Below are positions 6,475-64,000 of a stretch of DNA of 64,000 nucleotides, one piece after another (position 1 is the first letter of the stretch; the number at the start of each line of letters is the position of its first letter). The notes below the pieces were generated by a model. The model ran no database searches. It was not told the origin of the DNA and saw only the letters and a list, made by a program, of their open reading frames with translations. Both the position numbers and the translations under genes were made by a program. Source of the stretch: Bacteroidales bacterium. Lineage in GTDB: Bacteria > Bacteroidota > Bacteroidia > Bacteroidales > GCA-2711565. Location of the stretch: NCBI GenBank assembly GCA_963678785.1, contig OY787449.1, positions 768,704 to 832,703 on the forward strand, read 5' to 3'.

Positions 6475-9400
6475 TTATTTTAATTTTTCTAAAATAAAAT
6501 TGATGGCTTTATCCAATTGAGGATCATCTCCATTAATTCGATCTTTAAAAGTATTTTCGATATAAATATCAGGTTTTACACCTGTTTTTTCCAAGTCTTC
6601 GCCATTTAAGTTGAAACATCCCCAGGTTGGCAATCGGGTATAAGAACCATCAACCAAAGGCCATGCCGAAGTAAAGATAATCCATCGATAGGTCTCGGTA
6701 CCAATGATGGTTCCTAGATTCAAATTCCTAAAACCAGCAGCTGTCATTTCGGCATCGCTTAAACTATGTTCGTTAATAAGTAAAACAATGGGTTTACCTG
6801 AAGGCGCAAAATTAGGTTGAGGACTCATTTTACCATGACGCTGTTTCCACATCAAATAAGGAGATTGTGATAAAAATTGCAGCACAGCATCATGCACATT
6901 ACCACCTCGGTTATACCTCAGATCAAGAATAAGTGCATCCCGATGGACGGATTCGGTGGTCATATCAATCATAAAATCTGAGAGACTTCCTGTGCCCATA
7001 TCTTTCATATAAGCATAAGCTACTTTATTGCTGGTCTTGCTGTCAACCCTCTTTTGATTATTGGCAATCCACTCATCATAAAGCAAGGTATTCATGGCTC
7101 TTGAACTGATTGGGTGAATATTAACCACAAATTCCTGCTTATTTCTAACAAAGGTCAAACTTAATTCCGTAGGCAATTTTGCAAAACTGAAATAAGATGA
7201 TCGATTCAACTTTTCATTAACCTCAACTCCATTCACTTTAAGCAGTTTATCTCCTTTCTTTACCAAAGTTTCGGTAAGATCAAGTGGAGATTTATCCAGA
7301 ATACGGGACACCACAAAAGGATTATTTTCATCAAAAACAATTCCTGTTTCAGCATTGGCCACCCGGTAAAATGTTTTCTCTTCTTCTCCATTTGAACGGA
7401 ACGATAAATGCGAACCATTCAATTCGCCCAACATATCATTCAACAACAACCTCAAATCACTTCTACTTTTTATATGTGGAAAAAACTTTTCGTTTCTCTT
7501 TAAAACATTGGCCCAATCGGCACCATGGAAATCACCATCATAGAAGTTCTCATCTAAGGCCGCCCAGTTTTCATAATACATCTGCACAAATTCCTGGTTT
7601 AGCATTTTGCTAAACTGATGGGAAACATCAATTTTAGATGATTTATTTTGAACCAGATTTAAGGCATGTATGCTTCCTGAAACCAAGGCATAAACTTTAT
7701 CTTTCGCCTTTACAATATGAGCAATTCTGCCATTTACAATTTTATCTGTTTTTGGTCGATCGAATGGATCAATGGTCATCTTCCATAATCCATTAACCCC
7801 TTTATCATGATTTGACTGGAATAAAACAATGGTCTTGCCTTTTTGGTCTAATACGAAAGGCGCATATTGTTCTCCTCCTCTAACAAACAACCTTTCCCAT
7901 CTTTGGGTGATGTTTTTAGTATCAATAATTATTTCAGGCTTTAAAGAATCTTTTTTATTTTCAGCTTTGAATAAATCATCGTATTTATCCAGTTTAAAAT
8001 CTTTTGCAAAACGATATAAGGGGATTCTGTACATCCAATTGTTTTCAGTTCCTCTTGGGAAACCAGTACTAAATCTGTCGGCTGTAAAGTATAGATATTT
8101 ACCATCGGGTGACCAAGAAGGGTCATCTTCTGCTACACCATTATTGGTAAGGTTAATACTTTTCTTGGCTTTGATGTTAAACACAAAAATGTCACGCTCA
8201 AAATTTCGATAAGCCGTATAACTTAAATACTCATCATTTGGAGAAAATCTTGGGCCTTCGCCTCTAAACCAAAATTCATCATCGATCCAATTTTCAATTT
8301 TGAAAGTTTTTAAATCGATCATTTTTATGTGCCTGGTTCCACTGATATAAACCGCCTGGGTTTTTGCGTGGTTGAGTTCAAGCTCGCGTATGGTTGCATT
8401 TCCAGAGCTTAACTTTTTCTCTGCACCTGCAGTAGAACTGGCATCAATGGTGTATAAATTAGCCCAACCTTCTTGCGTTCGTGTATAGATTAGAGATTGA
8501 TTATCTTTCATCCATTTTACTTCACGAACCCTTTCGGCAGGATTCGTATTCATTTCCTTTATAAACTTTCCTTTGATATCAGAAACAAACAATCTACCTC
8601 GCGAAACAAAGGCAATTTTTTTATTGTCGGATGAAATGTCAAAAAAGGAGATTTTCCCTTTCACCTCATAATTTTTCACCGTATTTAAAACATCTGCTTC
8701 AAACAGATTAATTTGTGGTTGAATGGTTTTATTGCTTTTTACATCGTAAACAAAAAGCTGGTAATCTTTTGAGAAAACAATTTTATCACCATTTGCACTC
8801 ACCTGAGGGCGATTCATCGAAGATTTAAATCGAGTCAATTGCTTTTTTGTTCCGTTTACAAAAGTGTATAAATTATATTGTTCATTGTAATCATCCGAAA
8901 CGAAATACAATTTGCCGTTTCTGTCGACAGTTGGCCAAAAATCCTTACCAATATATTCGGTAAGCATTTTGAAATCGCCTGCTTTAGGGTCAAAATATTT
9001 TATATCCGGATTGTGATCACCTTTATATCTTTTACGATTTGGGAACATAAAACTCTCCCACGATTCGGTAAAATAAAATCCATTTGAAACTGGGTCTTTC
9101 ACCAAATGATGAGGCATATTAAAATAGTTATCTCCGAACATTCTGGTAGGTGTTCCGCCATCCACAGCTACTTCAAAAGAAGTAAAAGTGTTGTATCGGT
9201 TGGAGGTAAAATAGATGGATTTTGAGTCCCACGACCAGCTTTCAACAATGTCGTTTCCATCATGCACCGTAAGTTGTTTAATGTCTCCTCCCTCCCAGGG
9301 CATCACATATACATCGGCATTTCCGTTTTGGGTTGAAGAAAAAGCCAACCATTTTCCATCTGGAGAAAACCTGGGATTTGATTCAACTCCTTCAAAGGCA

Positions 9401-53848: not shown

Positions 53849-54469
53849 ATGCCAGCAAAGATTAGATTACAACGTAAAGGTAAAAAAGGCATGCCTTTTT
53901 ACCATATCGTTATTGCGGATGGTCGTGCACCACGGGACGGAAAATACATTGAAAGAATTGGCACTTACAATCCACTAACCAAACCAGCTGATATCAAATT
54001 AGACGTTGATAAAGCCGTTGATTGGTTAAACAAAGGAGCTCAACCTACAGATACGGTACGAGCAATTTTATCTTACTCAGGAGTTCTTTATAAGAACCAC
54101 CTCAGAAAAGGTGTTCTTAAAGGAGCTTTAACAGAAGAGCAAGCAGAAGCTAAATTCCAAATTTGGCAAAAAGAGAAGGATGCTAAGATCCAAGGTAAGA
54201 TTCAGGAAGTTGAGTCTTCAACCAAAGAAGAAAGCAAAAAGCGTTACGATGCTGAAGTTAAGATTAAAGAAGACAGAGCAGCCGAATTAGCTAAAAAACG
54301 CGCAGCTGAAATCGCAGCAGCTCAACCAGAGCAAGCTGAAGAAGAAGCTCCGGTAGCAGAAGAAACTTCGGAAGAAGCTCCTGCAGAAGAAGCTAAGGCA
54401 GAACCAAAAGCTGAAGAAGCCAAGGAAGCACCTAAAGCAGAAGAAACTGAAGAAAAAAAAGCAGAATAA
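53849..54469 (+). CDS. rpsP: 30S ribosomal protein S16 with long A/E/K-rich C-terminal extension
   Basis: N-terminus [42 protein letters not shown]. About 115 aa of low-complexity tail, as is common in Bacteroidota S16. Confidence 0.95.
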
Positions 54470-55877: not shown

Positions 55878-56654
55878 ATGAGATCTCATTTTAAATTCAT
55901 CACCTATCTACTTTTTTCATTTCTAATCATTTCTTGTTCAGGCCCTGCCGAGAAAACATTAACAATAGCATTATCCAAAAACAGCAAAAATTGTCGTACA
56001 TGGATTGCATCTGCTGACTCCACAGCACAAGTTATTGAGCTCTATACCTCATCATTGGATGAGGCCCTGGCAACATTTCAAAGTTGTGATGCCTTGATCA
56101 TCACCGGTGGATCAGACATTAATCCTGCATTGTATGGAAAGGAATCAGATACAGCAAGATGTGGGCGCATCGATTTCAGACAAGACACCCTTGAACTTGC
56201 TTTGATTGATAAAGCTTTAGAACTGGGTATACCTATATTGGGAATTTGTCGAGGTTCGCAAATGATAAACGTATCCTTTGGTGGTAGTTTAATCATTGAT
56301 ATTCCGACAGATGTCGATACGATTGTCAAACATCAATTAAGAAAAGGTTTCCACAAAGTCACCTTGGAACCCGGAACCAAATTGGCCTGGGCAACGAACG
56401 TAACCCATGGCATGGTAACCACCAATCACCATCAGGCCGTAGATGAACTAGGTAAAGAATTGAAGATTATTGCCAGATCTCCAAAAGATGGGGTTATTGA
56501 AGGTGTTGAATGGAAAGACCCCGAAGGAAAATCATTTCTGATGGGTGTACAATGGCACCCTGAACGTGATATGTACGATAATCCACTTGCAGTAGATTTA
56601 CTGGAATTACTGCTTCATGAAGCACGTCGCTATCAAGAGAAAAATCTCGATTAA
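55878..56654 (+). CDS. Class I glutamine amidotransferase-like, peptidase C26 (gamma-glutamyl-GABA hydrolase family) lipoprotein
   Basis: 258 aa. Lipobox LIISC. Nucleophile context GICRGSQMINV. QWHPE His motif. Confidence 0.8.
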   Translation: MRSHFKFITYLLFSFLIISCSGPAEKTLTIALSKNSKNCRTWIASADSTAQVIELYTSSLDEALATFQSCDALIITGGSDINPALYGKESDTARCGRIDFRQDTLELALIDKALELGIPILGICRGSQMINVSFGGSLIIDIPTDVDTIVKHQLRKGFHKVTLEPGTKLAWATNVTHGMVTTNHHQAVDELGKELKIIARSPKDGVIEGVEWKDPEGKSFLMGVQWHPERDMYDNPLAVDLLELLLHEARRYQEKNLD

Positions 56655-56960
56655 TTAGTCATAATTTTTATTTGATCTCAGCATTTACAAATATTTCCTT
56701 TATTAAGGAATAATCATCTCTTGCTACCTGGATTTACATTCAGCTTTTGATCCTGATAAAGAATTAAATGATAGAAATTTAATTTCTTCTTAAGGGCTTT
56801 AAATTTTACATATATCCGTTTTTTTACTTTCAAACAGATAGCGACCCCATATCTACCTATATTCCTGTCAGTTACCGGAACTTCAGTGTTGATTGTAAGC
56901 AATTTTAAACCTTGATGAAGTCGTCAATACTTTCAATTGGGCTAAAAAAAATTAAAAAAG

Positions 56961-56993
56961 TTTGCTATTATGCACATATGTTCATTATCTTTG
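56961..56993 (+). promoter_or_regulatory. Bacteroidota-type promoter (TTTG -33 / TATCTTTG -7) of the DUF134 operon, enclosing a 16-bp near-palindrome
   Basis: TTTG at 56961-56964, a 21-nt spacer, then TATCTTTG at 56986-56993 (TAnnTTTG). The spacer contains ATGCACATATGTTCAT (56970-56985), with 7 of 8 arm positions complementary. The ATG is at 57020. Confidence 0.45.
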
Positions 56994-57019
56994 CTGCATA
57001 AATCAAACTAATTTTTACA

Positions 57020-57490
57020 ATGCCAAGACCAAAAAATAATCGAATCGTTCACGAGCCTCCTCGTTTTTCAGCCTTTAAACCGGTTGGAGTAAGAGGTGTG
57101 GGTTCAGAGCAAATTTCATTAAGCTTGGACGAATTTGAAGCCATTAGACTGGCTGATCAACAAGGTTTATCGCATGCTGAAGCTTCTGACGAGATGGAAA
57201 TCTCACGATCTACTTTTACCCGACTTATTGAACAAGCAAGAAAAAAAATTGCCGATTTTCTGATACAAGGAAAGATGTTGGTCATTGAAGGTGGAAACAT
57301 CCACTTCAGGAAAAATCTAATCCGCTGTCAGGATTGTGGCCATATGTTCAATATAAATTTTAATGACTCATTTAATGAGTGTCCATCATGTAAATCTAAA
57401 AACCTGCTAAATCTTGCAGGTGGGTTTGGTCATGGACATTGCTGTTCAAATAAAAATTTTAATAAAGGAGGTAATTATGCCAAGAGGTGA
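57020..57490 (+). CDS. DUF134 (UPF0251) family putative DNA-binding regulator with C-terminal zinc ribbon and His/Cys tail
   Basis: 156 aa. Family-typical N-terminus MPRPKNNRIVHEPPRFSAFKP. Sigma-70 region-4-like HTH LSHAEASDEMEISRSTFTRLIEQARKKIA. CQDCG...CPSCK. GHGHCC. Confidence 0.8.
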   Translation: MPRPKNNRIVHEPPRFSAFKPVGVRGVGSEQISLSLDEFEAIRLADQQGLSHAEASDEMEISRSTFTRLIEQARKKIADFLIQGKMLVIEGGNIHFRKNLIRCQDCGHMFNINFNDSFNECPSCKSKNLLNLAGGFGHGHCCSNKNFNKGGNYAKR

Positions 57491-57794
57491 CAAAACAGGG
57501 CCAGAAGGTAGAGGCTCTATGACCGGCAGAGGACTTGGCTCCTGTGCAGGCGAAAATTCTACTAATTTAAATTCTTCAACATTCGGGTTGGGTTTAGGCC
57601 GGCGACTTGGAAGAGGAATGGGAAACGGAAGAAGTTTTGGAAACCGGTTTCAATCTGGAAACAGATGGTTTAATCGTGGATTTAACAGCTCAAGTGATTC
57701 GGAAAAAAGTCTGCTTGAAAATGAAATCAAGACTTTAAAAGAAAAACTTGGGAACTACGAGAATCGGCTATCTCAACTTGAAAAAAACAACTAA
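57477..57794 (+). CDS. DUF5320 family protein (Gly/Arg/Asn-rich N-terminus + C-terminal coiled coil)
   Basis: The ORF is listed from 57414. The likely start is ATG 57477, preceded by GGAGGT. MPRGDKTGPEGRGSMTGRGLGSCAG is the family-typical N-terminus. C-terminal LLENEIKTLKEKLGNYENRLSQLEK. Overlaps the DUF134 gene by 14 nt. Confidence 0.75.
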   Translation: MPRGDKTGPEGRGSMTGRGLGSCAGENSTNLNSSTFGLGLGRRLGRGMGNGRSFGNRFQSGNRWFNRGFNSSSDSEKSLLENEIKTLKEKLGNYENRLSQLEKNN

Positions 57795-57798
57795 ATCT

Positions 57799-57828
57799 TA
57801 AGGCAGGTTTGTAAACAAACCTGCCTTA
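57799..57828 (+). other. Perfect 13-bp stem-loop inside the operon (no T-tract)
   Basis: tAAGGCAGGTTTGtaaaCAAACCTGCCTTa, 5 nt after the DUF5320 stop and 19 nt before the next ATG. Confidence 0.6.
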
Positions 57829-57846
57829 TAAAAATTAAATAAGAAA

Positions 57847-58071
57847 ATGAAAAATTCATCAGCAGGAGGAAACGCAGGCCAGGGTCGTGGGTTAGGAAAA
57901 GGTGGTGGTAGAGGTCGCAATAAAGGTGGAAGTTTTGGAGTAGGAGGTTATTGCATTTGTGCAAAATGCGGAACCAAGGTTCCTCACCAACAGGGTGTTA
58001 AATGCACAAACCTGAAATGCCCAAATTGTGGAAAAACAATGATTAGAGAAGAATTATTAAATCAAAAATAA
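57847..58071 (+). CDS. Small Gly/Arg-rich protein with 6-Cys zinc-ribbon-like C-terminus
   Basis: 74 aa. GNAGQGRGLGKGGGRGRNKGGSFGVGG followed by CICAKCG...H...C....CPNCG. This type commonly accompanies DUF134/DUF5320 genes in anaerobes. Confidence 0.65.
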   Translation: MKNSSAGGNAGQGRGLGKGGGRGRNKGGSFGVGGYCICAKCGTKVPHQQGVKCTNLKCPNCGKTMIREELLNQK

Positions 58072-58089
58072 ATCTATTAAAAAACAATT

Positions 58090-58428
58090 ATGAAAATAAA
58101 ATTTGCCATACCAACCTTAAATGGAGAGCTAACAGCACATTTTGGGCACTGCGAAAAATTTGCAGTTGTAGAAGTGGAAAATAATGCCGTAATAAACGAG
58201 GAAACTTTAACACCTCCAGTTCATCAACCTGGGGTTTATCCTAAGTTTTTAGCAGACCAGGGTGTCAATGTAATTATTGCAGGAGGAATGGGTCAGCATG
58301 CACAAAATTTATTTGCACAGAACAACATTGAAGTTCATATGGGAGTCGTAAATGGCACACCTAAACAACTGGTTGAAAACCTTTTAAACAACCAATTAAA
58401 AACAGGTGATAACCTTTGCGATCATTAA
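58090..58428 (+). CDS. NifX/NifB-C-terminal (dinitrogenase FeMo-cofactor-binding fold, ORP-like) family protein 1
   Basis: 112 aa. MKIKFAIPT..G.L..HFGHCEKF...VIIAGGMGQHAQNLF is the typical family pattern. Confidence 0.75.
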   Translation: MKIKFAIPTLNGELTAHFGHCEKFAVVEVENNAVINEETLTPPVHQPGVYPKFLADQGVNVIIAGGMGQHAQNLFAQNNIEVHMGVVNGTPKQLVENLLNNQLKTGDNLCDH

Positions 58429-58431
58429 TAA

Positions 58432-58917
58432 ATGAAAAAAATTGAACTTAGCCCGATAGGGGTGATTCATACACCTTATAAGGAAGCACAGAACATCCCT
58501 ATTCAGGCATCCTTCGGGAATGGTATTGAAGCGCATTGTGAGCTATTTGATAAATATACTGATGGATTGAAAGACCTTGATGGCTTTAGTCATGCCATTC
58601 TAATCTATCATTTTCATAAATGCAAAGATGAAAAGCTCATTGCCAAACCATATCTTGAAAACAAAGAGCACGGAGTTTTTGCAATTAGAAGTCCATACCG
58701 ACCCAATAAGATTGGATTTTCCATTGTCAAAATAAAAAACATCAATCATAATATCTTAAATTTTACAGAAGTCGATATGCTTGATGGCACACCCCTGCTT
58801 GATATAAAGCCCTATGTGGCACATTTCGATTCCAGACCAAACACAAAAGCCGGTTGGATTGATAAGCACTTTATTGATGGAGAAATTCCTTCACAAGTAA
58901 TACTTAAGAAAAAATGA
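58432..58917 (+). CDS. TsaA/TrmO-fold (UPF0066/YaeB) protein
   Basis: 161 aa. IGVIHTPY, RPNKIGFSIVKI, DMLDGTPLLDIKPY are signature blocks of the TrmO N-terminal domain. Confidence 0.75.
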   Translation: MKKIELSPIGVIHTPYKEAQNIPIQASFGNGIEAHCELFDKYTDGLKDLDGFSHAILIYHFHKCKDEKLIAKPYLENKEHGVFAIRSPYRPNKIGFSIVKIKNINHNILNFTEVDMLDGTPLLDIKPYVAHFDSRPNTKAGWIDKHFIDGEIPSQVILKKK

Positions 58918-59780
58918 AAATAGCCATTGCCAGCGGAAAAGGTGGAACAGGAAAAACAACCCTGGCCGTCAACTTTGCCAATTTTCTGGCCGAGGATCAA
59001 AAAGCAGTTTTGGTTGATTTAGATGTTGAAGAACCCAATTCTGGATTGTTCATCGATGCGAAATTGGTAAATCAGGAACATAAATATAAAATGCATCCCG
59101 AGTGGAAAGAAGACCAATGCACCCTATGTGGAAACTGCCAGAAAGTATGTAATTTTCACGCAGTCATACAGCTGGGTAATCAAATAATGGTTTTCCCCGA
59201 ACTATGTCATAGTTGCCACGCCTGTTCAGAATTATGTCCAAGCAGTGCTTTACCTATGAAACAGCAAAAAATGGGTGAATTGAGGCATTTCCAGAATAAC
59301 AACCTTACCTTTATCGAAAGCAGATTGGATATTGGACAAGAACAAGCTGTTCCTTTAATAGCTCAAACACAGGAATATGTAGACAAAAACATTAAGAATT
59401 CAGAATTCATTCTCTTTGATTCTCCACCCGGCACATCCTGCCCTGTGATTGAAGCAACAAAAGATGTTGATTACATTATTCTGGTTACCGAACCAACTCC
59501 CTTTGGCTTTCATGACTTAAAGCTCGCGATTGAAACCATGCGTGAACTTAAAAAAGATTTTGGAGTGGTTGTTAATCGTGATGGAATTGGAAATGATGAT
59601 GTTATTAATTATTGTGAGGATCAAAAAATTCAGGTATTAGCAAGAATTCCAAACGATAAAGAAATTGCAAAACTTTATTCCCGTGGAGAATTGATCTATA
59701 AAAAACACCCAGCCTTTAAAGAAGAGCTAAAACACATCAATCAAGCCTTATTAAAAATAAAAAACGGAGGTGAACAATGA
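58914..59780 (+). CDS. MinD/ParA-type P-loop ATPase with inserted 2x[4Fe-4S] ferredoxin domain, paralogue 1
   Basis: 288 aa. Deviant Walker A SGKGGTGKTT. CTLCGNCQKVCNFHA and CHSCHACSELCPSSA. Walker B FILFDSPPG. ATGA overlap upstream. Confidence 0.85.
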   Translation: MKIAIASGKGGTGKTTLAVNFANFLAEDQKAVLVDLDVEEPNSGLFIDAKLVNQEHKYKMHPEWKEDQCTLCGNCQKVCNFHAVIQLGNQIMVFPELCHSCHACSELCPSSALPMKQQKMGELRHFQNNNLTFIESRLDIGQEQAVPLIAQTQEYVDKNIKNSEFILFDSPPGTSCPVIEATKDVDYIILVTEPTPFGFHDLKLAIETMRELKKDFGVVVNRDGIGNDDVINYCEDQKIQVLARIPNDKEIAKLYSRGELIYKKHPAFKEELKHINQALLKIKNGGEQ

Positions 59781-60655
59781 AAGAAATTGTAATTATTTCG
59801 GGCAAAGGTGGAACAGGAAAAACCTCCATTACAGCTTCATACAGCTGCTTAGGAGGAGAAGATTTGGTAGTAGCTGACTGTGATGTAGATGCTGCCGACA
59901 TGCATCTATTATTAGAACCCGACTTCGACATGAGGGAAGATTTTTACAGTGGGGAACTAGCCATCATTAACCCGGATGAATGTATCAACTGTGGTTTATG
60001 CCAAGAAGTTTGTAGGTTTAATGCCGTTTCCATTGTGAAGAAACAATATGTAATTGATCCATTAAACTGCGAAGGTTGTGGTTACTGTGCAAGGGTTTGC
60101 CCTTCTGAAGCAATAAGCAACCAACAATTAAAAGTTGGTCAAAGCTATATTTCCAAAACCCGTTTTGGCAGTACCATGGTTCATGCCCATTTAGGAATAG
60201 GTGCAGATAATTCCGGCAAACTGGTTGCAAAAGTTAAAAATGATGCCAAAAAAATTGCCACCGATACCCAAAAAGATTTTGTACTTATCGATGGTTCTCC
60301 AGGACTAGGATGTCCCGTTGTTTCATCTCTATCGGGTGCCAATTTTGTGGTGATGGTTACCGAGCCAACCGTTTCAGGCTTGCATGACTTAAAACGTGTT
60401 TATGAGTTGGTTAAGAAATTCAAAATAAAAGCAGGTTGTATCATCAATAAGTGTGACATCAATCCCAAGATTAGTCTTGAAATTGCCGCATTTTTATGTC
60501 AGGAAAACATCATTCACCTCACCAATCTGCCTTATGATGAAAACTTCACCAAAGCAATGACCGAAGGAAAAACCATTGTTGAATTTGATCATGATGAGTT
60601 AAAAACACTTTTAACAGACAGTTGGGAAAAGGTTAAAGAACAAGCTCTTCAATAA
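59777..60655 (+). CDS. MinD/ParA-type P-loop ATPase with inserted 2x[4Fe-4S] ferredoxin domain, paralogue 2
   Basis: 292 aa. SGKGGTGKTS. CINCGLCQEVCRFNA and CEGCGYCARVCPSEA. VLIDGSPGLGC. ATGA overlap preceded by GGAGGTG. Confidence 0.85.
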   Translation: MKEIVIISGKGGTGKTSITASYSCLGGEDLVVADCDVDAADMHLLLEPDFDMREDFYSGELAIINPDECINCGLCQEVCRFNAVSIVKKQYVIDPLNCEGCGYCARVCPSEAISNQQLKVGQSYISKTRFGSTMVHAHLGIGADNSGKLVAKVKNDAKKIATDTQKDFVLIDGSPGLGCPVVSSLSGANFVVMVTEPTVSGLHDLKRVYELVKKFKIKAGCIINKCDINPKISLEIAAFLCQENIIHLTNLPYDENFTKAMTEGKTIVEFDHDELKTLLTDSWEKVKEQALQ

Positions 60656-60711
60656 ATACAAAAAACTTAAGCTTTGATAATATCATAGCTGCAAACATAA
60701 AAAACAAAAAA

Positions 60712-61050
60712 ATGAAAATAGCATTTACAGCAAAAGGAAATGAATGGGATTCAAAAATGGATCCTCGATTTGGAAGAACTGAATTCATTTTGATTTATGA
60801 TAATGAAAAAGAAGAGATGACTCATTTTGACAACCGCGCCATCGAGAATGAAGCCCATGGTGCAGGTCCAAAGACATCTCAAAAACTATTTGAACTGGGA
60901 GCCAATGTATTGATTACAGGAAATGGTCCCGGCGGAAATGCAGCCGCAGTTCTAGAAAAGGCAGGCACTAAAGTTTTCATTGGTGCAGGAGAAATGACAG
61001 TTAAACAAGCTTATGAAGCTTACAATAATAAATCATTAAAAGAATTATAA
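60712..61050 (+). CDS. NifX/NifB-C-terminal (ORP-like) family protein 2
   Basis: 112 aa. MKIAFTAKG...DPRFGRTEFILIYD...VLITGNGPGGNAAAVLEKAGTKVF is the typical family pattern. Confidence 0.75.
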   Translation: MKIAFTAKGNEWDSKMDPRFGRTEFILIYDNEKEEMTHFDNRAIENEAHGAGPKTSQKLFELGANVLITGNGPGGNAAAVLEKAGTKVFIGAGEMTVKQAYEAYNNKSLKEL

Positions 61051-61052
61051 GA

Positions 61053-62420
61053 ATGAAATCATATGATGTTATCATAATTGGAGCAGGTCCTGCAGGCATC
61101 ATTACGGGAGTAACAGCAAAATCACAATTTCCAGAAAAATCAATGCTGATGTTTAAGGAAGAAGACAAAGGATTGGTTCCTTGTGGAATTCCTTACATTT
61201 TTCATCAGTTAAATGATGTAGATAAAGATGTTATGGGGCCTAAACCATTCATCGACATGGGAGGTGAAGTATTAAAGGAGAAGGTGACTGAGGTTGATGC
61301 AAAAAATAAGACCTTAAAAACAATATCTGGTGAGGAATATAAATTTGAAAAATTGGTTTTTGCAACGGGTTCACAAGTAGTAGTCCCAAATTTTATTCCT
61401 GGAAATGAGCTAGAAGGTGTATACTATATAAAGAAAAGTTATAACTACATCAAACAGATTTTTGATCACTTAAAAACCAAAAAGAAAGTAGTGGTTATTG
61501 GAGGAGGTTTTATCGGTGCAGAGGTAGCTGAACAGCTCTCAATGAATGATAATACAGAAGTTACACTTATCGAAAGTGAACCTCTTTGCTTCTCAAAAGC
61601 TTTTTCGAAGGAATTAAGCCAAATTGCAACTGAAGCCTTAAATGGTACAAAAACCAATGTACTCACAAATACACGCGTTCAAAAAATTACAGGCATGAAT
61701 GGAGCTGCATCTGCTGTTGTTCTGGATAATGGAGAAGAAATCAAATGTGATGCAGTGGTAATGGCCATTGGATACAAACCCAATACAGATCTTGCAAAAA
61801 AAGCAGGACTGGAGCTTAACGAAACCGGAGCCATTATTGTAGATAATTATGAGCGCACCAAATATGAAGGAATTTGTGCTGTTGGAGACTGCTCTCAAAC
61901 CATTGGTTTTCTGACAGGCAGAATCGATCATGTGATGTTGGCATCAACCGCAACAGCCGAAGCTCGAGTGCTTGGACATAATTTATTTGGCATCAAGATA
62001 AGAAAACCTTTTTCTGGAACCATCGCCGTTTTCTCAACCAAAATAAATGGAATTGCCATGGCAGCAGCCGGAGTAAATGATTGTAATGCAGAAGAAGGAA
62101 ACATCGAGTTTATTAGCGCCAAGTTTAGTGATTTTGACAGGCATCCGGGTTCTTTCGTAGATACCTCAGCTTTAACGATGAAACTCTATGCCTCACCTTA
62201 TGATGGTTCCATCATTGGTGGTGAAGTTTGGGGTGGAGATTCATCCGGTGAAATTATTAATACCATTAGTTTAGCCATACAAAAAGGCGTTACAGTGTAT
62301 GAATTGATTTCATTCCAAATCGGCTCGCATCCTTTATTAACAGCAGCTCCAACAAAAACAATATTAATTAAAGCCGCTGAAGGAATTATTAAAGAAATCG
62401 CCAAAAGAAACGCAAAATGA
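61053..62420 (+). CDS. FAD-dependent pyridine nucleotide-disulfide oxidoreductase (CoA-disulfide reductase/NADH oxidase-like)
   Basis: 455 aa. YDVIIIGAGPAG (FAD), single redox Cys context LVPCGIPY, VVVIGGGFIGAEVAE (NAD(P)H), AVGDC. Confidence 0.8.
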   Translation: MKSYDVIIIGAGPAGIITGVTAKSQFPEKSMLMFKEEDKGLVPCGIPYIFHQLNDVDKDVMGPKPFIDMGGEVLKEKVTEVDAKNKTLKTISGEEYKFEKLVFATGSQVVVPNFIPGNELEGVYYIKKSYNYIKQIFDHLKTKKKVVVIGGGFIGAEVAEQLSMNDNTEVTLIESEPLCFSKAFSKELSQIATEALNGTKTNVLTNTRVQKITGMNGAASAVVLDNGEEIKCDAVVMAIGYKPNTDLAKKAGLELNETGAIIVDNYERTKYEGICAVGDCSQTIGFLTGRIDHVMLASTATAEARVLGHNLFGIKIRKPFSGTIAVFSTKINGIAMAAAGVNDCNAEEGNIEFISAKFSDFDRHPGSFVDTSALTMKLYASPYDGSIIGGEVWGGDSSGEIINTISLAIQKGVTVYELISFQIGSHPLLTAAPTKTILIKAAEGIIKEIAKRNAK

Positions 62421-62794
62421 AACTCGAGCACATCGCTTTAAGCATTAAAGATGAACATGATATCAATCTGTTTTATAAACAGATCTTGGGGATGCAGGAA
62501 GTTAGAAATTTTACACTGAATAAAACACTTTCAGGAAAAATTTTCGGCATCGCCACCGAAACCAATGTTCATCTGTTGAAAAAGGGAGATTTGACTTTTG
62601 AAATTTTTATAAACCCAAATCAAGCTGATTTGGGTTTTAACCACATTTGTTTTAAAACCAATGATCGGGATTCATTAATTGACAAAGCCAGAGAAGGAAA
62701 TTATGAATGCATACAAATTGAACGTGAAAACTCTGATTTGATATTTATTAAAGATCATAGTGGGAATGTTTTTGAAATAAAAAACGGCGTTTAG
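62417..62794 (+). CDS. VOC (glyoxalase/bleomycin-resistance/dioxygenase) family protein
   Basis: 125 aa. MKLEHIALSIKD...FNHICF...DHSGNVFEI pattern. ATGA overlap upstream. Confidence 0.65.
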   Translation: MKLEHIALSIKDEHDINLFYKQILGMQEVRNFTLNKTLSGKIFGIATETNVHLLKKGDLTFEIFINPNQADLGFNHICFKTNDRDSLIDKAREGNYECIQIERENSDLIFIKDHSGNVFEIKNGV

Positions 62795-62840
62795 ACACAA
62801 AACAATCAGGTTCTGTTGAAATAACAAACAAATAAGCGTT

Positions 62841-63629
62841 ATGAAACTTACAGTATTAACAGAAAACACAGCCTCAGGCAATTATACTGCCGAACATGGA
62901 TTGTCTTATTATATTGAACAAGACACCAACATCCTTTTTGACACTGGTCATTCGGATGTATTTTTAAAGAATGCTGAAAGGTTAGGAATAGAACTTGATG
63001 ATATTGAAAACATTGTACTAAGTCATGGGCATTGGGATCATGGGGATGGCCTAAAATATTTGAAAAATAAAAACCTTATTTGTCATCCCTATGCTTTCAT
63101 CAAACGGTACAGAAAAATTGATCATCACTACATCGGGCTGAAATTAAATTATTATGAACTAAATAAAAGGTTTCGGCTCATCAATACACGAAGGCCCTAT
63201 TACATTCACGAAAACATGATATTTTTAGGTGAAATTCCACGGATAAACAGATTTGAAGCTCAATCAACACCTTTTGTTGATGAGCACCTGATCGATGATT
63301 ATGTTCCGGATGATTCGGCTTTAGCTGTAATACAAGATGATGAGTTGATTGTTGTTTCGGGTTGTGCGCATGCCGGCATTTGTAACATTATCGAACATGC
63401 AAAAAAAGTAAGCGGAATAAAAAAGGTGTTGGCTGTCATCGGAGGATTTCATTTGAAAGAAATTAATGAACAAACCAAAAAAACCATTGCATACTTTAAA
63501 AAGCAAAAAATAAAACACATTTATCCATCACATTGCACTGATTTACCTGCCTTATCTGCTTTTTATGAAGCTTTTAACATCAAGCAACTAAAATCAGGAA
63601 TGCATTTAAATTTTGGGGAATCAGCATAA
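62841..63629 (+). CDS. MBL-fold metallo-hydrolase
   Basis: 262 aa. HGHWDHGDG metal-binding motif, later SGCAHAG and HC. Resembles the small MBL proteins found in archaeal and anaerobe clusters. Confidence 0.75.
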   Translation: MKLTVLTENTASGNYTAEHGLSYYIEQDTNILFDTGHSDVFLKNAERLGIELDDIENIVLSHGHWDHGDGLKYLKNKNLICHPYAFIKRYRKIDHHYIGLKLNYYELNKRFRLINTRRPYYIHENMIFLGEIPRINRFEAQSTPFVDEHLIDDYVPDDSALAVIQDDELIVVSGCAHAGICNIIEHAKKVSGIKKVLAVIGGFHLKEINEQTKKTIAYFKKQKIKHIYPSHCTDLPALSAFYEAFNIKQLKSGMHLNFGESA

Positions 63630-63663
63630 AAACCCATAATTAATATTTTGAAATCATACTAAA

Positions 63664-64000
63664 TTGAAGATAAATTATTCCAAAAATATTGACCCTCTGA
63701 AATTGCTATTATCAAAGCATTCCTTTGATTTATCTATCATTAAAGAAATTGCCACGGGCCAAAAATATACAGGCATTATGCTCACAAATGGGCAAATTGG
63801 GGTTTGTGCAAACTTGAACAATAAGGTTAGTTCTGATAAAAAAGAATATCAAAAAATAGACCTCCAGAGCCTTTCTCATCGCATCATACTAACATCTTAT
63901 TATAATGCCTTGCTTAATTATTCAAAATTTACAACGGAAAGTAAGGACATCGCTGAAGATATAGATTTTAGAAAATACGAAAAATTGGTAATGATTGGAT
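63664..64000 (+). CDS. DUF4213/DUF364 (putative metal-chelating Rossmann-like) protein, 3'-truncated by window edge; start uncertain
   Basis: The frame is open from 63631 to the window end. There is no ATG before 63778, so candidate starts are TTG 63649 or TTG 63664. The translation ...GQKYTGIMLTNGQIGVCANL...HRIILTSYYNALLNY...KLVMIG matches the DUF4213 N-domain pattern. Confidence 0.55.
   Translation, partial: MKINYSKNIDPLKLLLSKHSFDLSIIKEIATGQKYTGIMLTNGQIGVCANLNNKVSSDKKEYQKIDLQSLSHRIILTSYYNALLNYSKFTTESKDIAEDIDFRKYEKLVMIG

Follow-up and report, generated by a model that had tools for sequence, protein, structure and literature searches.

A DUF134-linked operon with paired ferredoxin-bearing ATPases and NifX-family proteins of the ORP type in a Bacteroidales bacterium

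For more than ten years, the orange-protein (ORP) complex has been recognized as a group of Fe-S ATPases and NifX-like proteins specific to anaerobes. We analyzed a related operon in a 64-kb stretch of DNA of a Bacteroidales bacterium (contig OY787449.1; the whole stretch is called the window below). Twelve genes, all on the + strand, run from position 57020 to the window edge, eleven as complete open reading frames (ORFs) and the twelfth cut by the edge. In order, they encode a DUF134 protein, a DUF5320 protein, a 74-residue cysteine-rich protein, a NifX-family protein, a TrmO_N protein, two paralogous ATPases, a second NifX-family protein, a flavoprotein, a VOC protein, an MBL-fold protein, and a DUF4213/DUF364 protein. 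An earlier reading of the letters and ORFs of the window (the sequence-only reading) had described twelve co-directional ORFs with junctions of −14 to +56 nt and three ATGA stop/start overlaps. The eleven complete ORFs were recovered at exactly the coordinates it gave, and junctions recomputed from them had the same values: −14, +52, +18, +3, −4, −4, +56, +2, −4, +46, and +34 nt, with ATGA overlaps at 58914, 59777, and 62417. Its family labels agree with our Pfam and NCBIfam profile searches of the window proteins, for gene 12 by way of DUF364 orthologues in relatives.

Related loci were collected in two ways. An alignment-based scan with ATPase 1, keeping one genome per species and reaching many phyla, gave 80 genome loci, which were searched by tblastn with 17 queries (the eleven complete window genes, the DUF364 gene and four downstream genes of a close relative, L001, and a methyltransferase gene of another, L002). 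As an independent test, a further 80 metagenome loci were retrieved by DUF134 alone, using a narrow alignment that covers one DUF134 clade. Together, the two sets make up ~160 related loci.

The regulatory region and the first three genes

Gene 1 (57020 to 57490) encodes a DUF134/UPF0251 protein (PF02001, matched over residues 3 to 95 with 90.6 bits; cutoff 27). A helix-turn-helix (HTH) is matched by Sigma70_r4_2 (E = 2e-7), and the C-terminal third, which gives weak zinc-ribbon and HypA matches, consists of a CxxC...CxxC ribbon and a GGFGHGHCC tail. DUF134 proteins of the Bacteroidota/Spirochaetota/Calditrichota group have the same CxxC...CxxC arrangement followed by a conserved LAGGFGHGxCC tail; those of other lineages carry N-terminal CC/C motifs or Gly/Arg-rich tails instead. 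To our knowledge, DUF134 is among the oldest uncharacterized protein families.

A Bacteroidetes-type promoter can be read on the + strand ahead of gene 1 (56961 to 56993). It is made up of a −33 box TTTG (56961 to 56964), a 21-nt spacer, and a −7 box TAtcTTTG (56986 to 56993), and is the single match to the consensus −33 TTTG/−7 TAnnTTTG within 56500 to 64000, in agreement with the earlier statement that a promoter-like motif occurs only before the first gene. The spacer is filled by a palindrome, ATGCACATATGTTCAT (56970 to 56985), with the core TGCACATATGTTCA (56971 to 56984). This palindrome, whose short consensus between the −33 and −7 boxes is TG[A/C]ACATATGT[T/G]CA, is a predicted DUF134 operator. 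When regions upstream of DUF134 genes from 80 loci were aligned, the element TGnnCATATGnnCA was found between the −35/−33 and −10/−7 boxes in Bacteroidota, Calditrichota, Spirochaetota, Marinimicrobia, Campylobacterota, Cloacimonadota, Zixibacteria, Dehalococcoidia, and Smithella. The same palindrome is flanked in relatives by equivalent boxes or, in other phyla, by TTGACA/TATAAT, and some loci have two copies, the second shortly after the first.

To describe the association of the palindrome with DUF134, we counted sites with at most one mismatch located within 200 nt upstream of a DUF134 gene. Such sites were present at 36 of 44 genome loci. Of the 103 sites counted in 1.26 Mb of sequence, 42 were within the DUF134 upstream regions, which make up 0.7% of that length. 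Where no DUF134 gene was adjacent, the palindrome stood directly upstream of an ATPase or DUF5320 gene (L031, L038, L042, L062, L076, and L017). Among the metagenome loci, 71 of the 73 with enough upstream DNA carried the palindrome. The ATPase pair followed DUF134 directly in 20 of the 28 metagenome loci with at least 3.5 kb of downstream sequence; five of the other eight (L085, L104, L107, L147, and L149) have the operator, DUF134, DUF5320, and ARMT1/DUF89 in that order, starting at position 8001 or 231/545, and continue with CGGC, radical SAM, or VOC genes but no ATPases. Pooling both sets gave the palindrome at 110 of 126 DUF134 loci from more than ten phyla, with 77 unique sites and the consensus aTTATG[A/C]ACATATGT[T/G]CATTA. 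It abuts the −10/−7 box, and the median distance from its center to the start codon is 38 nt. The palindrome is thus probably the DUF134 operator. A palindrome so placed and so associated is typical of a repressor that controls its own gene, and this pair is a candidate case. The conserved element was newly recognized in this analysis and is the most useful new handle on the system.

The sequence-only reading had called the operon a differently regulated variant of the ORP system, which in Desulfovibrio vulgaris Hildenborough is under the control of sigma-54 and the regulator OrpR. This holds: a scan for sigma-54 (−24/−12) promoters gave no match near 57020, and the −33/−7 promoter contains the DUF134-linked palindrome instead. 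As in OrpR and IscR-type logic, a Cys-bearing DNA-binding protein is encoded together with its presumed targets, and a candidate autoregulatory operator overlaps the promoter. Unlike OrpR and IscR, DUF134 is an unrelated, uncharacterized family combining a sigma-70 region-4-like HTH with a zinc ribbon–like Cys4 motif, and its binding to DNA and ligand is predicted. A scan with the sigma-70 consensus, which is uninformative for Bacteroidota, gave no more matches than in shuffled sequence. The Rfam scan of 56500 to 64000 detected no riboswitch or known RNA, its two weak matches being far below threshold.

A second operator-like site, TGGCCATATGTTCA (57337 to 57350), with zero mismatches, lies inside gene 1 (+317), where it encodes CGHMF of the zinc ribbon. 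At first, we viewed it as a pure codon coincidence. The codon counts at 13 loci, which are phylogenetically related, lean the other way: TGT is used in 13 of 13, CAT in 13 of 13, and TTC in 8 of 13, versus backgrounds of 0.61, 0.77, and 0.27, respectively.

Gene 2 (57477 to 57794, ATG start; PF17253, 83.7 bits) encodes a DUF5320 protein with a Gly/Arg/aromatic N terminus, one conserved cysteine (Cys23), and a C-terminal coiled coil. The N terminus bears the conserved motif MPxGDxTGPxGxGxxTGRxxGxC; its first 72 residues have a pI of 12.0 and contain 25% Gly, 6 aromatic residues, and 1 Cys. Gene 3 (57847 to 58071) encodes 74 amino acids, with a Gly/Arg-rich N terminus and a cysteine domain of the form CxCxxCG-x5-H-x5-C-x4-CPxCG, in which the six Cys and the His are at least 98% conserved. 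No family scored above threshold for this protein in the Pfam and NCBIfam profile searches, and none of its 256 homologues has a precomputed Pfam domain. The named homologues are mostly “hypothetical protein,” a few having JGI automatic labels of ribosomal protein S26 or DUF1610 zinc ribbon. DUF134 is fused to a gene 3–type Cys/His domain in an archaeal locus (L067, 11690 onward) and in L023:6184, L044:7627, and L026:5157 (Lentimicrobium-type), a Rosetta-stone fusion that links the regulator to the Cys-rich miniprotein. The products of genes 2 and 3 are putative binders of metal-sulfide, of DNA or RNA, or of the regulator. A literature search returned nothing relevant for DUF5320 or for the CGGC domain considered below.

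Straight after the gene 2 stop codon lies a perfect 13-bp stem-loop (57799 to 57828, + strand; dG = −20.4 kcal/mol, z = −6.4). Since only 18 nt separate the end of the hairpin from the start codon of gene 3, a separate promoter before gene 3 is unlikely. Strong hairpins of unrelated sequence occupy the same position in ten relatives (L001, L002, L004, L007, L011, L012, L013, L017, L024, and L037), in some of them preceding T-runs. A conserved position with differing stems suggests an RNA-level function, such as attenuation, partial termination, or stabilization. By attenuating or stabilizing the transcript, the hairpin probably sets the ratio of the regulatory pair to the structural genes and so subdivides expression. 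Within the operon, no T-tract terminator was found on the + strand, as stated previously, though the hairpin had gone unmentioned.

NifX-family proteins and paired ATPases

The ORP complex of D. vulgaris comprises Orp3 (DVU2103) and Orp4 (DVU2104), which are MinD-like and have two [4Fe-4S] motifs each, together with Orp5, Orp8 (DVU2108), and Orp9 (MrpORP, DVU2109) (PMC6345978). Orp8 is of the orange-protein type, homologous to proteins with a non-covalently bound Mo-Cu sulfide cluster, and the cluster of the D. gigas ORP is such a Mo-Cu sulfide (PMC6345978). Orp9 joins a Mrp P-loop domain to a Di-Nase domain, which binds a [3Fe-4S] cluster and is marked by the motifs HFGHCE, TPPPHxPGxxP, and CDH (PMC6345978). 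Orp3, Orp4, and Orp8 copurify and receive Fe-S clusters from MrpORP (PMC6345978). The role of the complex is still described as unclear (PMC8359166).

Genes 4 (58090 to 58428) and 8 (60712 to 61050) belong to the NifX family, as had been proposed (PF02579, 69.3 and 58.2 bits). Each encodes 112 amino acids with a pI of 5.6 to 5.7 and no tail. Gene 8 is of the ORP/Orp8 type. Its product matches the D. gigas ORP (Protein Data Bank 2WFB, E = 1.2e-12), TM1290 (1RDU, E = 6e-13), and MTH1175 (1EO1), and is cysteine-free, as expected of a non-covalent cluster binder. Gene 4 is of the Orp9/MrpORP C-terminal type: It scores 124 bits to positions 264 to 365 of the MrpORP model NF041136 (cutoff 450), that is, to the Di-Nase part only, and carries HFGHCE, TPPVHQPGVYP, and a C-terminal CDH. 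Residues H17, C21, H45, C110, and H112 are conserved among 83 homologues, and the nearest structures are TM1816 (1T3V/1O13) and PH0822.

Genes 6 (58914 to 59780) and 7 (59777 to 60655) encode MinD/ParA-class ATPases, each matched by CbiA/ParA and two Fer4 models, which agrees with their earlier placement as MinD/ParA ATPases with ferredoxin motifs. The two are paralogues with 30% identity. Both have an intact deviant Walker A motif (GKGGTGKT), keep the switch I and switch II aspartates, and carry an inserted 2×[4Fe-4S] ferredoxin domain, at residues ~57 to 120 in ATPase 1, whose eight Cys are at least 98% conserved in each protein. ATPase 1 belongs to a family with more than 8000 matches, ~70% identical across Bacteroidales, Calditrichales, Spirochaetes, and Cloacimonadota metagenome-assembled genomes; a protein 100% identical to it is known (P0001). 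Outside the ferredoxin cysteines, C176 (100%) and C234 (94%) are conserved in ATPase 1, and C179 (100%) in ATPase 2, in which C35, H43, H136, and H203 are also invariant or nearly so.

The AlphaFold2 model of ATPase 1 has a pLDDT of 83, with lower confidence in the ferredoxin insert, which is modeled without its cofactors. Foldseek ranked MinD at the top, followed by McdA, FlhG, BchL, HypB, and NifH. Sequence search found no full-length solved homologue of the ATPases, and the MinD equivalog models scored far below their cutoffs (minD_arch, 59 bits versus 202; minD_bact, 41 versus 213). Classification of the ATPases as NifH-like was rejected, the Fer4_NifH match being below cutoff and the Cys97 loop missing; so was classification as Mrp-like, for which family scores were below cutoff and the CxxC motif was missing. 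ATPase 1 was further aligned with the Azotobacter vinelandii NifH sequence, in which the numbering of Cys97, Asp125, and Cys132 had been checked. D169 and C176 of ATPase 1 align without gaps on D125 and C132 of NifH, and in ATPase 2, Cys179 likewise lies at +7 from the switch II Asp. Where NifH holds Cys97, the ATPases have the ferredoxin insert. The alignment speaks for a NifH-like mechanism in which nucleotide state would be coupled to an Fe-S center at a putative dimer face.

With NifH and BchL, the ATPases share the SIMIBI-class dimeric ATPase fold, the deviant Walker A motif, redox-active Fe-S clusters on the ATPase, and NifX-family partners. Unlike in NifH, the predicted clusters sit in an inserted ferredoxin domain standing in place of the Cys97 region, and the fold resembles MinD more than NifH; unlike in nitrogenase assembly, no NifEN/NifDK-like partner is present. 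Like Mrp, NBP35, ApbC, and NUBPL, they are P-loop ATPases with a D-x-PPGT switch II motif, but they lack the bridging CxxC and carry ferredoxin inserts instead. They have the deviant Walker A fold of MinD, which has no ferredoxin insert.

The likeness to MinD bears on a proposal first made for the D. vulgaris ORP complex, namely, that the ATPases act in MinD-like positioning or cell division, with Fe-S clusters making division redox-responsive and the neighboring genes being incidental. MinD proteins are the best structural matches of ATPase 1, Orp depletion leads to morphological defects, MrpORP is found at the cell pole, and an amphipathic C-terminal helix is predicted for Orp3 and Orp4 (PMC8359166, PMC6345978). 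However, the C-terminal helix of ATPase 1 is modeled with high confidence as part of the fold, and the invariant Cys at the NifH cluster-ligand position, seen by alignment in ATPase 1 and by spacing in ATPase 2, is absent from MinD. Moreover, no MinC, MinE, or division genes were seen in any of the 160 loci, where the recurrent neighbors are all metal, sulfur, or redox proteins. We regard a role in division as very improbable.

The sequence-only reading had recognized an ORP-like core in the operon, and the matches of gene 8 to 2WFB and of gene 4 to the MrpORP Di-Nase part, together with the paralogous ATPases and their eight ferredoxin Cys, bear this out. The shared features are two paralogous MinD-like ATPases with two [4Fe-4S] ferredoxin motifs each, an ORP-type single-domain NifX protein (gene 8), Di-Nase motifs of the Orp9 C-terminal type (gene 4), and restriction to anaerobes. 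The ORP genes of D. vulgaris are arranged in two divergent operons controlled by sigma-54 and OrpR, whereas the window genes form one co-directional operon with a DUF134 repressor candidate and a palindromic operator. In addition, the Di-Nase module of the window is free-standing, without a Mrp P-loop domain in the operon, and the operon adds the Gly/Arg-rich DUF5320 protein, the 74-residue Cys protein, and about nine accessory enzymes. The operon can therefore be described as a variant of the ORP complex without sigma-54 control and without the fused Mrp domain.

A different likeness concerns the cationic proteins. IssA of Pyrococcus furiosus has a NifX-type domain and stores thioferrate by means of a cationic Gly/aromatic tail; it is made when iron and sulfide are abundant, and the MTH1175 structure (1EO1) served to model it (PMC5524996). 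The IssA-type globular domain (NifX/IPR003731) is present in genes 4 and 8, of which gene 8 matches 1EO1, and the N-terminal 72 residues of the DUF5320 protein resemble the IssA tail in composition. Unlike in IssA, the cationic segments of the window are on separate polypeptides (genes 2 and 3), joined to a coiled coil or to the Cys6 domain, and IssA is not described with paired ATPases. Among the operons seen, the closest to an IssA-like combination of domain and cationic tail was a NifX-type protein with a Cys/Arg-rich tail, GCCRKRRQVRRRHRRGG, encoded at L074:8714-9163; similar genes occur in L014, L058, and L069.

Conserved core and accessory pool

Across the 80 genome loci, ATPase 2 adjoins ATPase 1 in 77, and the ORP-type NifX gene is found in 68, the Orp9-C-type NifX gene in 53, DUF134 in 43, the 74-residue Cys protein in 34, and DUF5320 in 19, with further divergent DUF5320 copies in 18 of the 160 loci. 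The core genes lie on the ATPase strand in all but two NifX hits. The conserved core thus consists of about seven genes, namely, DUF134, DUF5320, the six-Cys miniprotein, the Orp9-C-type NifX protein, the two ATPases, and the ORP-type NifX protein. This core is ancient; the other genes form a recurrent accessory pool, and the order of 12 or 16 genes is limited to close relatives. Over 146 tblastn hits, genes of this pool share the strand of the core in all but four.

In the window, the pool is represented by five genes. Gene 5 (58432 to 58917; PF01980, 133 bits) encodes a single-domain TrmO_N/TsaA-fold protein of 161 amino acids (TIGR00104, 144 bits versus a cutoff of 93.25), with TrmO_N alone, whereas the tRNA m6t6A methyltransferase TrmO has a two-domain architecture (TrmO_N plus a C-terminal domain); its nearest structure is the single-domain AF_0241. 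Gene 9 (61053 to 62420; Pyr_redox_2, 188 bits) encodes a flavoprotein with a single Cys, in VPCGIPY. The best models for CoA-disulfide reductase (CoADR) gave 208 bits (cutoff 458) and 204 bits (cutoff 579), all equivalog models were below cutoff, and the nearest structures are Archaeoglobus fulgidus NoxA-3 and CoADRs. The protein is a member of the wider CoADR/Nox/Npx class. Gene 10 (62417 to 62794; PF00903, 34.8 bits) encodes a VOC/glyoxalase-fold protein, and gene 11 (62841 to 63629; PF00753, 41.3 bits) an MBL-fold protein of the uncharacterized TM1679/2P4Z type (2P4Z and 3H3E, E of about 1e-32). Gene 12 (~63664 to 64000), whose start codon is uncertain, is cut by the edge and gives a weak DUF4213 match (21.9 bits versus a cutoff of 23.5); its full-length orthologues in L001 and L002 carry DUF364.

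The contigs L001 and L002, whose ATPase 1 is 87% and 79% identical to that of the window, are collinear with it from the upstream rpsP-rimM-methyltransferase-amidotransferase genes through all twelve genes. After gene 12, both have four more genes of the same orientation, beyond which lies a convergent tex gene. These encode an ARMT1/DUF89 damage-control-phosphatase-like protein, a 394–amino acid Cys_Met_Meta_PP enzyme whose best models are those of methionine gamma-lyase, at scores below their cutoffs, a 149–amino acid CGGC-domain protein, and a radical SAM protein of 311 to 312 amino acids. L002 has an additional methyltransferase gene between the flavoprotein and VOC genes. Because of these four genes, the full unit, earlier described as a 12-gene operon, would comprise about 16 genes, of which twelve are in the window; for the window’s own genome, this extension is predicted from the synteny of L001 and L002.

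Three observations concern the upstream region. The gene for ribosomal protein S16 (53849 to 54469) encodes 206 amino acids with a long Ala/Glu/Lys-rich C-terminal extension, its L001 and L002 orthologues having 217 and 224 amino acids. A 365-nt gap between the amidotransferase gene and DUF134 (56655 to 57019) holds a minus-strand ORF of 62 amino acids (56714 to 56902). At the equivalent place, L002 has a called 87–amino acid gene on the minus strand.

The accessory genes recur at very different frequencies: ARMT1 in 15 of the 80 loci, CoADR-like in 14, CGGC in 13, radical SAM in 13, MBL in 11, TrmO_N in 6 (distant loci), Cys_Met_Meta_PP in 5, methyltransferase in 4, and VOC and DUF364 in 2 each. 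The flavoprotein, DUF364, and TrmO-fold proteins, which the sequence-only reading had described as joined to the core, come from a variable pool (14, 2, and 6 loci), as do the VOC and MBL proteins, and are not fixed partners. Similarly, gene order is conserved in full in close relatives and for the core across phyla; beyond close relatives, the full order is not. ARMT1 and CGGC also stand next to each other in L015, L023, and L026, and the CGGC protein is 56 to 85% identical across phyla in all but one locus.

The restricted order could mean that there is no unit beyond the seven-gene core, genes 5 and 9 to 16 being unrelated genes that happen to share an orientation in this lineage and have promoters of their own. 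In support of this, the full order is limited to L001 and L002 and, in part, L083 and L010; VOC and DUF364 are as rare as just described, and gaps of 46 to 56 nt precede genes 8 and 11. However, ATGA overlaps join genes 5, 6, and 7 as well as genes 9 and 10, and neither a second promoter consensus nor a + strand terminator is present. In addition, ARMT1, CGGC, radical SAM, MBL, CoADR-like, and TrmO_N genes recur by the core in varied orders in Planctomycetota, Desulfobacterota, Thermoplasmatota, and Campylobacterota: 82 of 85 accessory hits are on the strand of the core, the exceptions being two CoADR-like hits and one ARMT1 hit, and they also occur in such distant lineages as Smithella (L069), Pirellulales (L055), Thermoguttaceae (L058 and L074), and Thermoplasmata (L063). 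A chance assembly of unrelated genes is therefore very improbable.

Clustering of the unassigned ORFs of the related operons revealed further recurrent members. Mrp/NUBPL-type Fe-S carrier ATPases (288 bits to PF10609) are encoded in 24 loci, including L006, L023, L026, L035, L044, L048 to L050, L053, L055, L060, L063, L065, L066, L068, L076 to L078, and L082; the L053 gene has a NifU-like N-terminal extension. ChrR-like cupins are found in 15 loci, putative heavy-metal exporters of the ArsP_2 family in 12, a third NifX-type protein in 9, DUF4405 in 8, and DUF59/FeS_assembly_P and a CobO-type adenosyltransferase in 4 each. The window contains no Mrp/NUBPL, ArsP_2, ChrR-like cupin, or DUF59 gene. 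In the ORP system, MrpORP loads Orp3 and Orp4 in vitro.

The composition of the pool is the basis of the main rival explanation, which we consider unlikely: a DUF134 stress regulon, that is, a loose defense set against sulfide or polysulfide, thiomolybdate or copper, metalloid toxicity, or redox damage. In such a set, the NifX and Gly/Arg proteins would sequester metal-sulfide, and the flavoprotein, MBL, VOC, DUF89, methyltransferase, and exporter proteins would detoxify or remove the agents. The high variability of the pool fits this idea, as do the exporters and cupins together with a peroxiredoxin and ArsM/TehB-like methyltransferases that recur in related operons, and the five metagenome loci in which DUF134 and the operator precede ARMT1-CGGC, radical SAM, or VOC sets without ATPases. 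The Mo-Cu sulfide cluster of the D. gigas ORP (PMC6345978) and the production of IssA under plentiful iron and sulfide (PMC5524996) point in the same direction. On the other hand, ATPases that are ~70% identical across phyla and almost always paired argue for a dedicated energy-requiring machine, the co-occurrence of Mrp/NUBPL and DUF59 indicates cluster delivery, and the window’s operon has no exporter.

A proposed metal-sulfur machine under DUF134 control

Overall, the reading that we favor, and hold to be probable, is that the operon is repressed by DUF134 and encodes an ATP-driven machine of the ORP type for the assembly or trafficking of metal-sulfur clusters; the function is inferred. 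Handling of metal-sulfur cofactors had already been suggested in the sequence-only reading, and is strengthened here because genes for Mrp/NUBPL (24 loci) and DUF59 (4 loci) lie in related operons.

The following course of events may be envisaged. DUF134, with its HTH, Cys4 ribbon, and His/Cys tail, would bind TGCACATATGTTCA in the promoter spacer as a dimeric repressor and block RNA polymerase, and would be released or tightened, probably by the metal or Fe-S ligand state of its cysteines. Transcription would yield DUF134 and DUF5320 first, and the hairpin would then limit or stabilize read-through into the structural genes. The two ATPases may pair, in an ATP-dependent manner, into a heterodimer whose ferredoxin inserts would contain four [4Fe-4S] clusters. 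By analogy with the action of NifH on NifEN/NifX, ATP would gate electron transfer by this heterodimer, through which a metal-sulfur cluster would be built, reduced, or passed on. The NifX-type pair would carry that cluster, gene 4 through Cys/His ligands (Orp9-C type) and gene 8 non-covalently (ORP type). Genes 2 and 3, which encode the cationic Gly/Arg proteins, may serve to bind metal-sulfide anions in the manner of the IssA tail or may work together with the regulator. Sulfur, thiols, and groups derived from S-adenosylmethionine might be supplied or recycled by the accessory enzymes (CoADR-like, methionine gamma-lyase–like, radical SAM, TrmO_N, DUF89, CGGC, MBL, VOC, and DUF364).

Several points weigh against this reading. 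GAAC-N4-GTTC is the core of the Gram-positive LexA (Cheo) box and is contained in the operator variant TGAACATATGTTCA, so another protein could in principle bind the element; we favor DUF134 over LexA because variants with GCAC or GAGC occur often and because the element and DUF134 go together almost perfectly across phyla. A literature search found no experiment on any DUF134 protein or on the host organism. The hairpin in the window (57799 to 57828) lacks a T-tract, and termination there is putative. The heterodimer, and any cluster at C176/C179, are predicted from alignment. No Mrp/NUBPL homologue was found in the operon or elsewhere in the 64-kb window. The accessory genes vary greatly between loci and may share regulation only, rather than a pathway. 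Last, the D. vulgaris ORP complex is linked to cell morphology and is not proven to act in cluster assembly (PMC8359166).

The analysis ties DUF134 to an ORP-like system and assigns to it a candidate operator, together with a candidate regulon found in Bacteroidota, Spirochaetota, Calditrichota, Campylobacterota, Cloacimonadota, Planctomycetota, Desulfobacterota, and archaea. It also separates core from accessory genes in ORP-like operons, points out a NifH-like switch II cysteine in their ATPases, and ties the system to the recognized Fe-S carriers Mrp/NUBPL and DUF59. With a candidate repressor and its binding site, the system becomes directly testable. A more ambitious version of the favored reading, which is doubtful at present, is that DUF134 is a metal-sulfide– or Fe-S–sensing repressor with a pan-anaerobe regulon marked by TG[A/C]ACATATGT[T/G]CA and that the operons encode an unrecognized ATP-driven cluster route, in which a NifH-like heterodimer would act on NifX carriers and IssA-like Gly/Arg proteins would hold thioferrate-like material. 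If true, this would add a third kind of cluster-handling system beside ISC/SUF and NIF.

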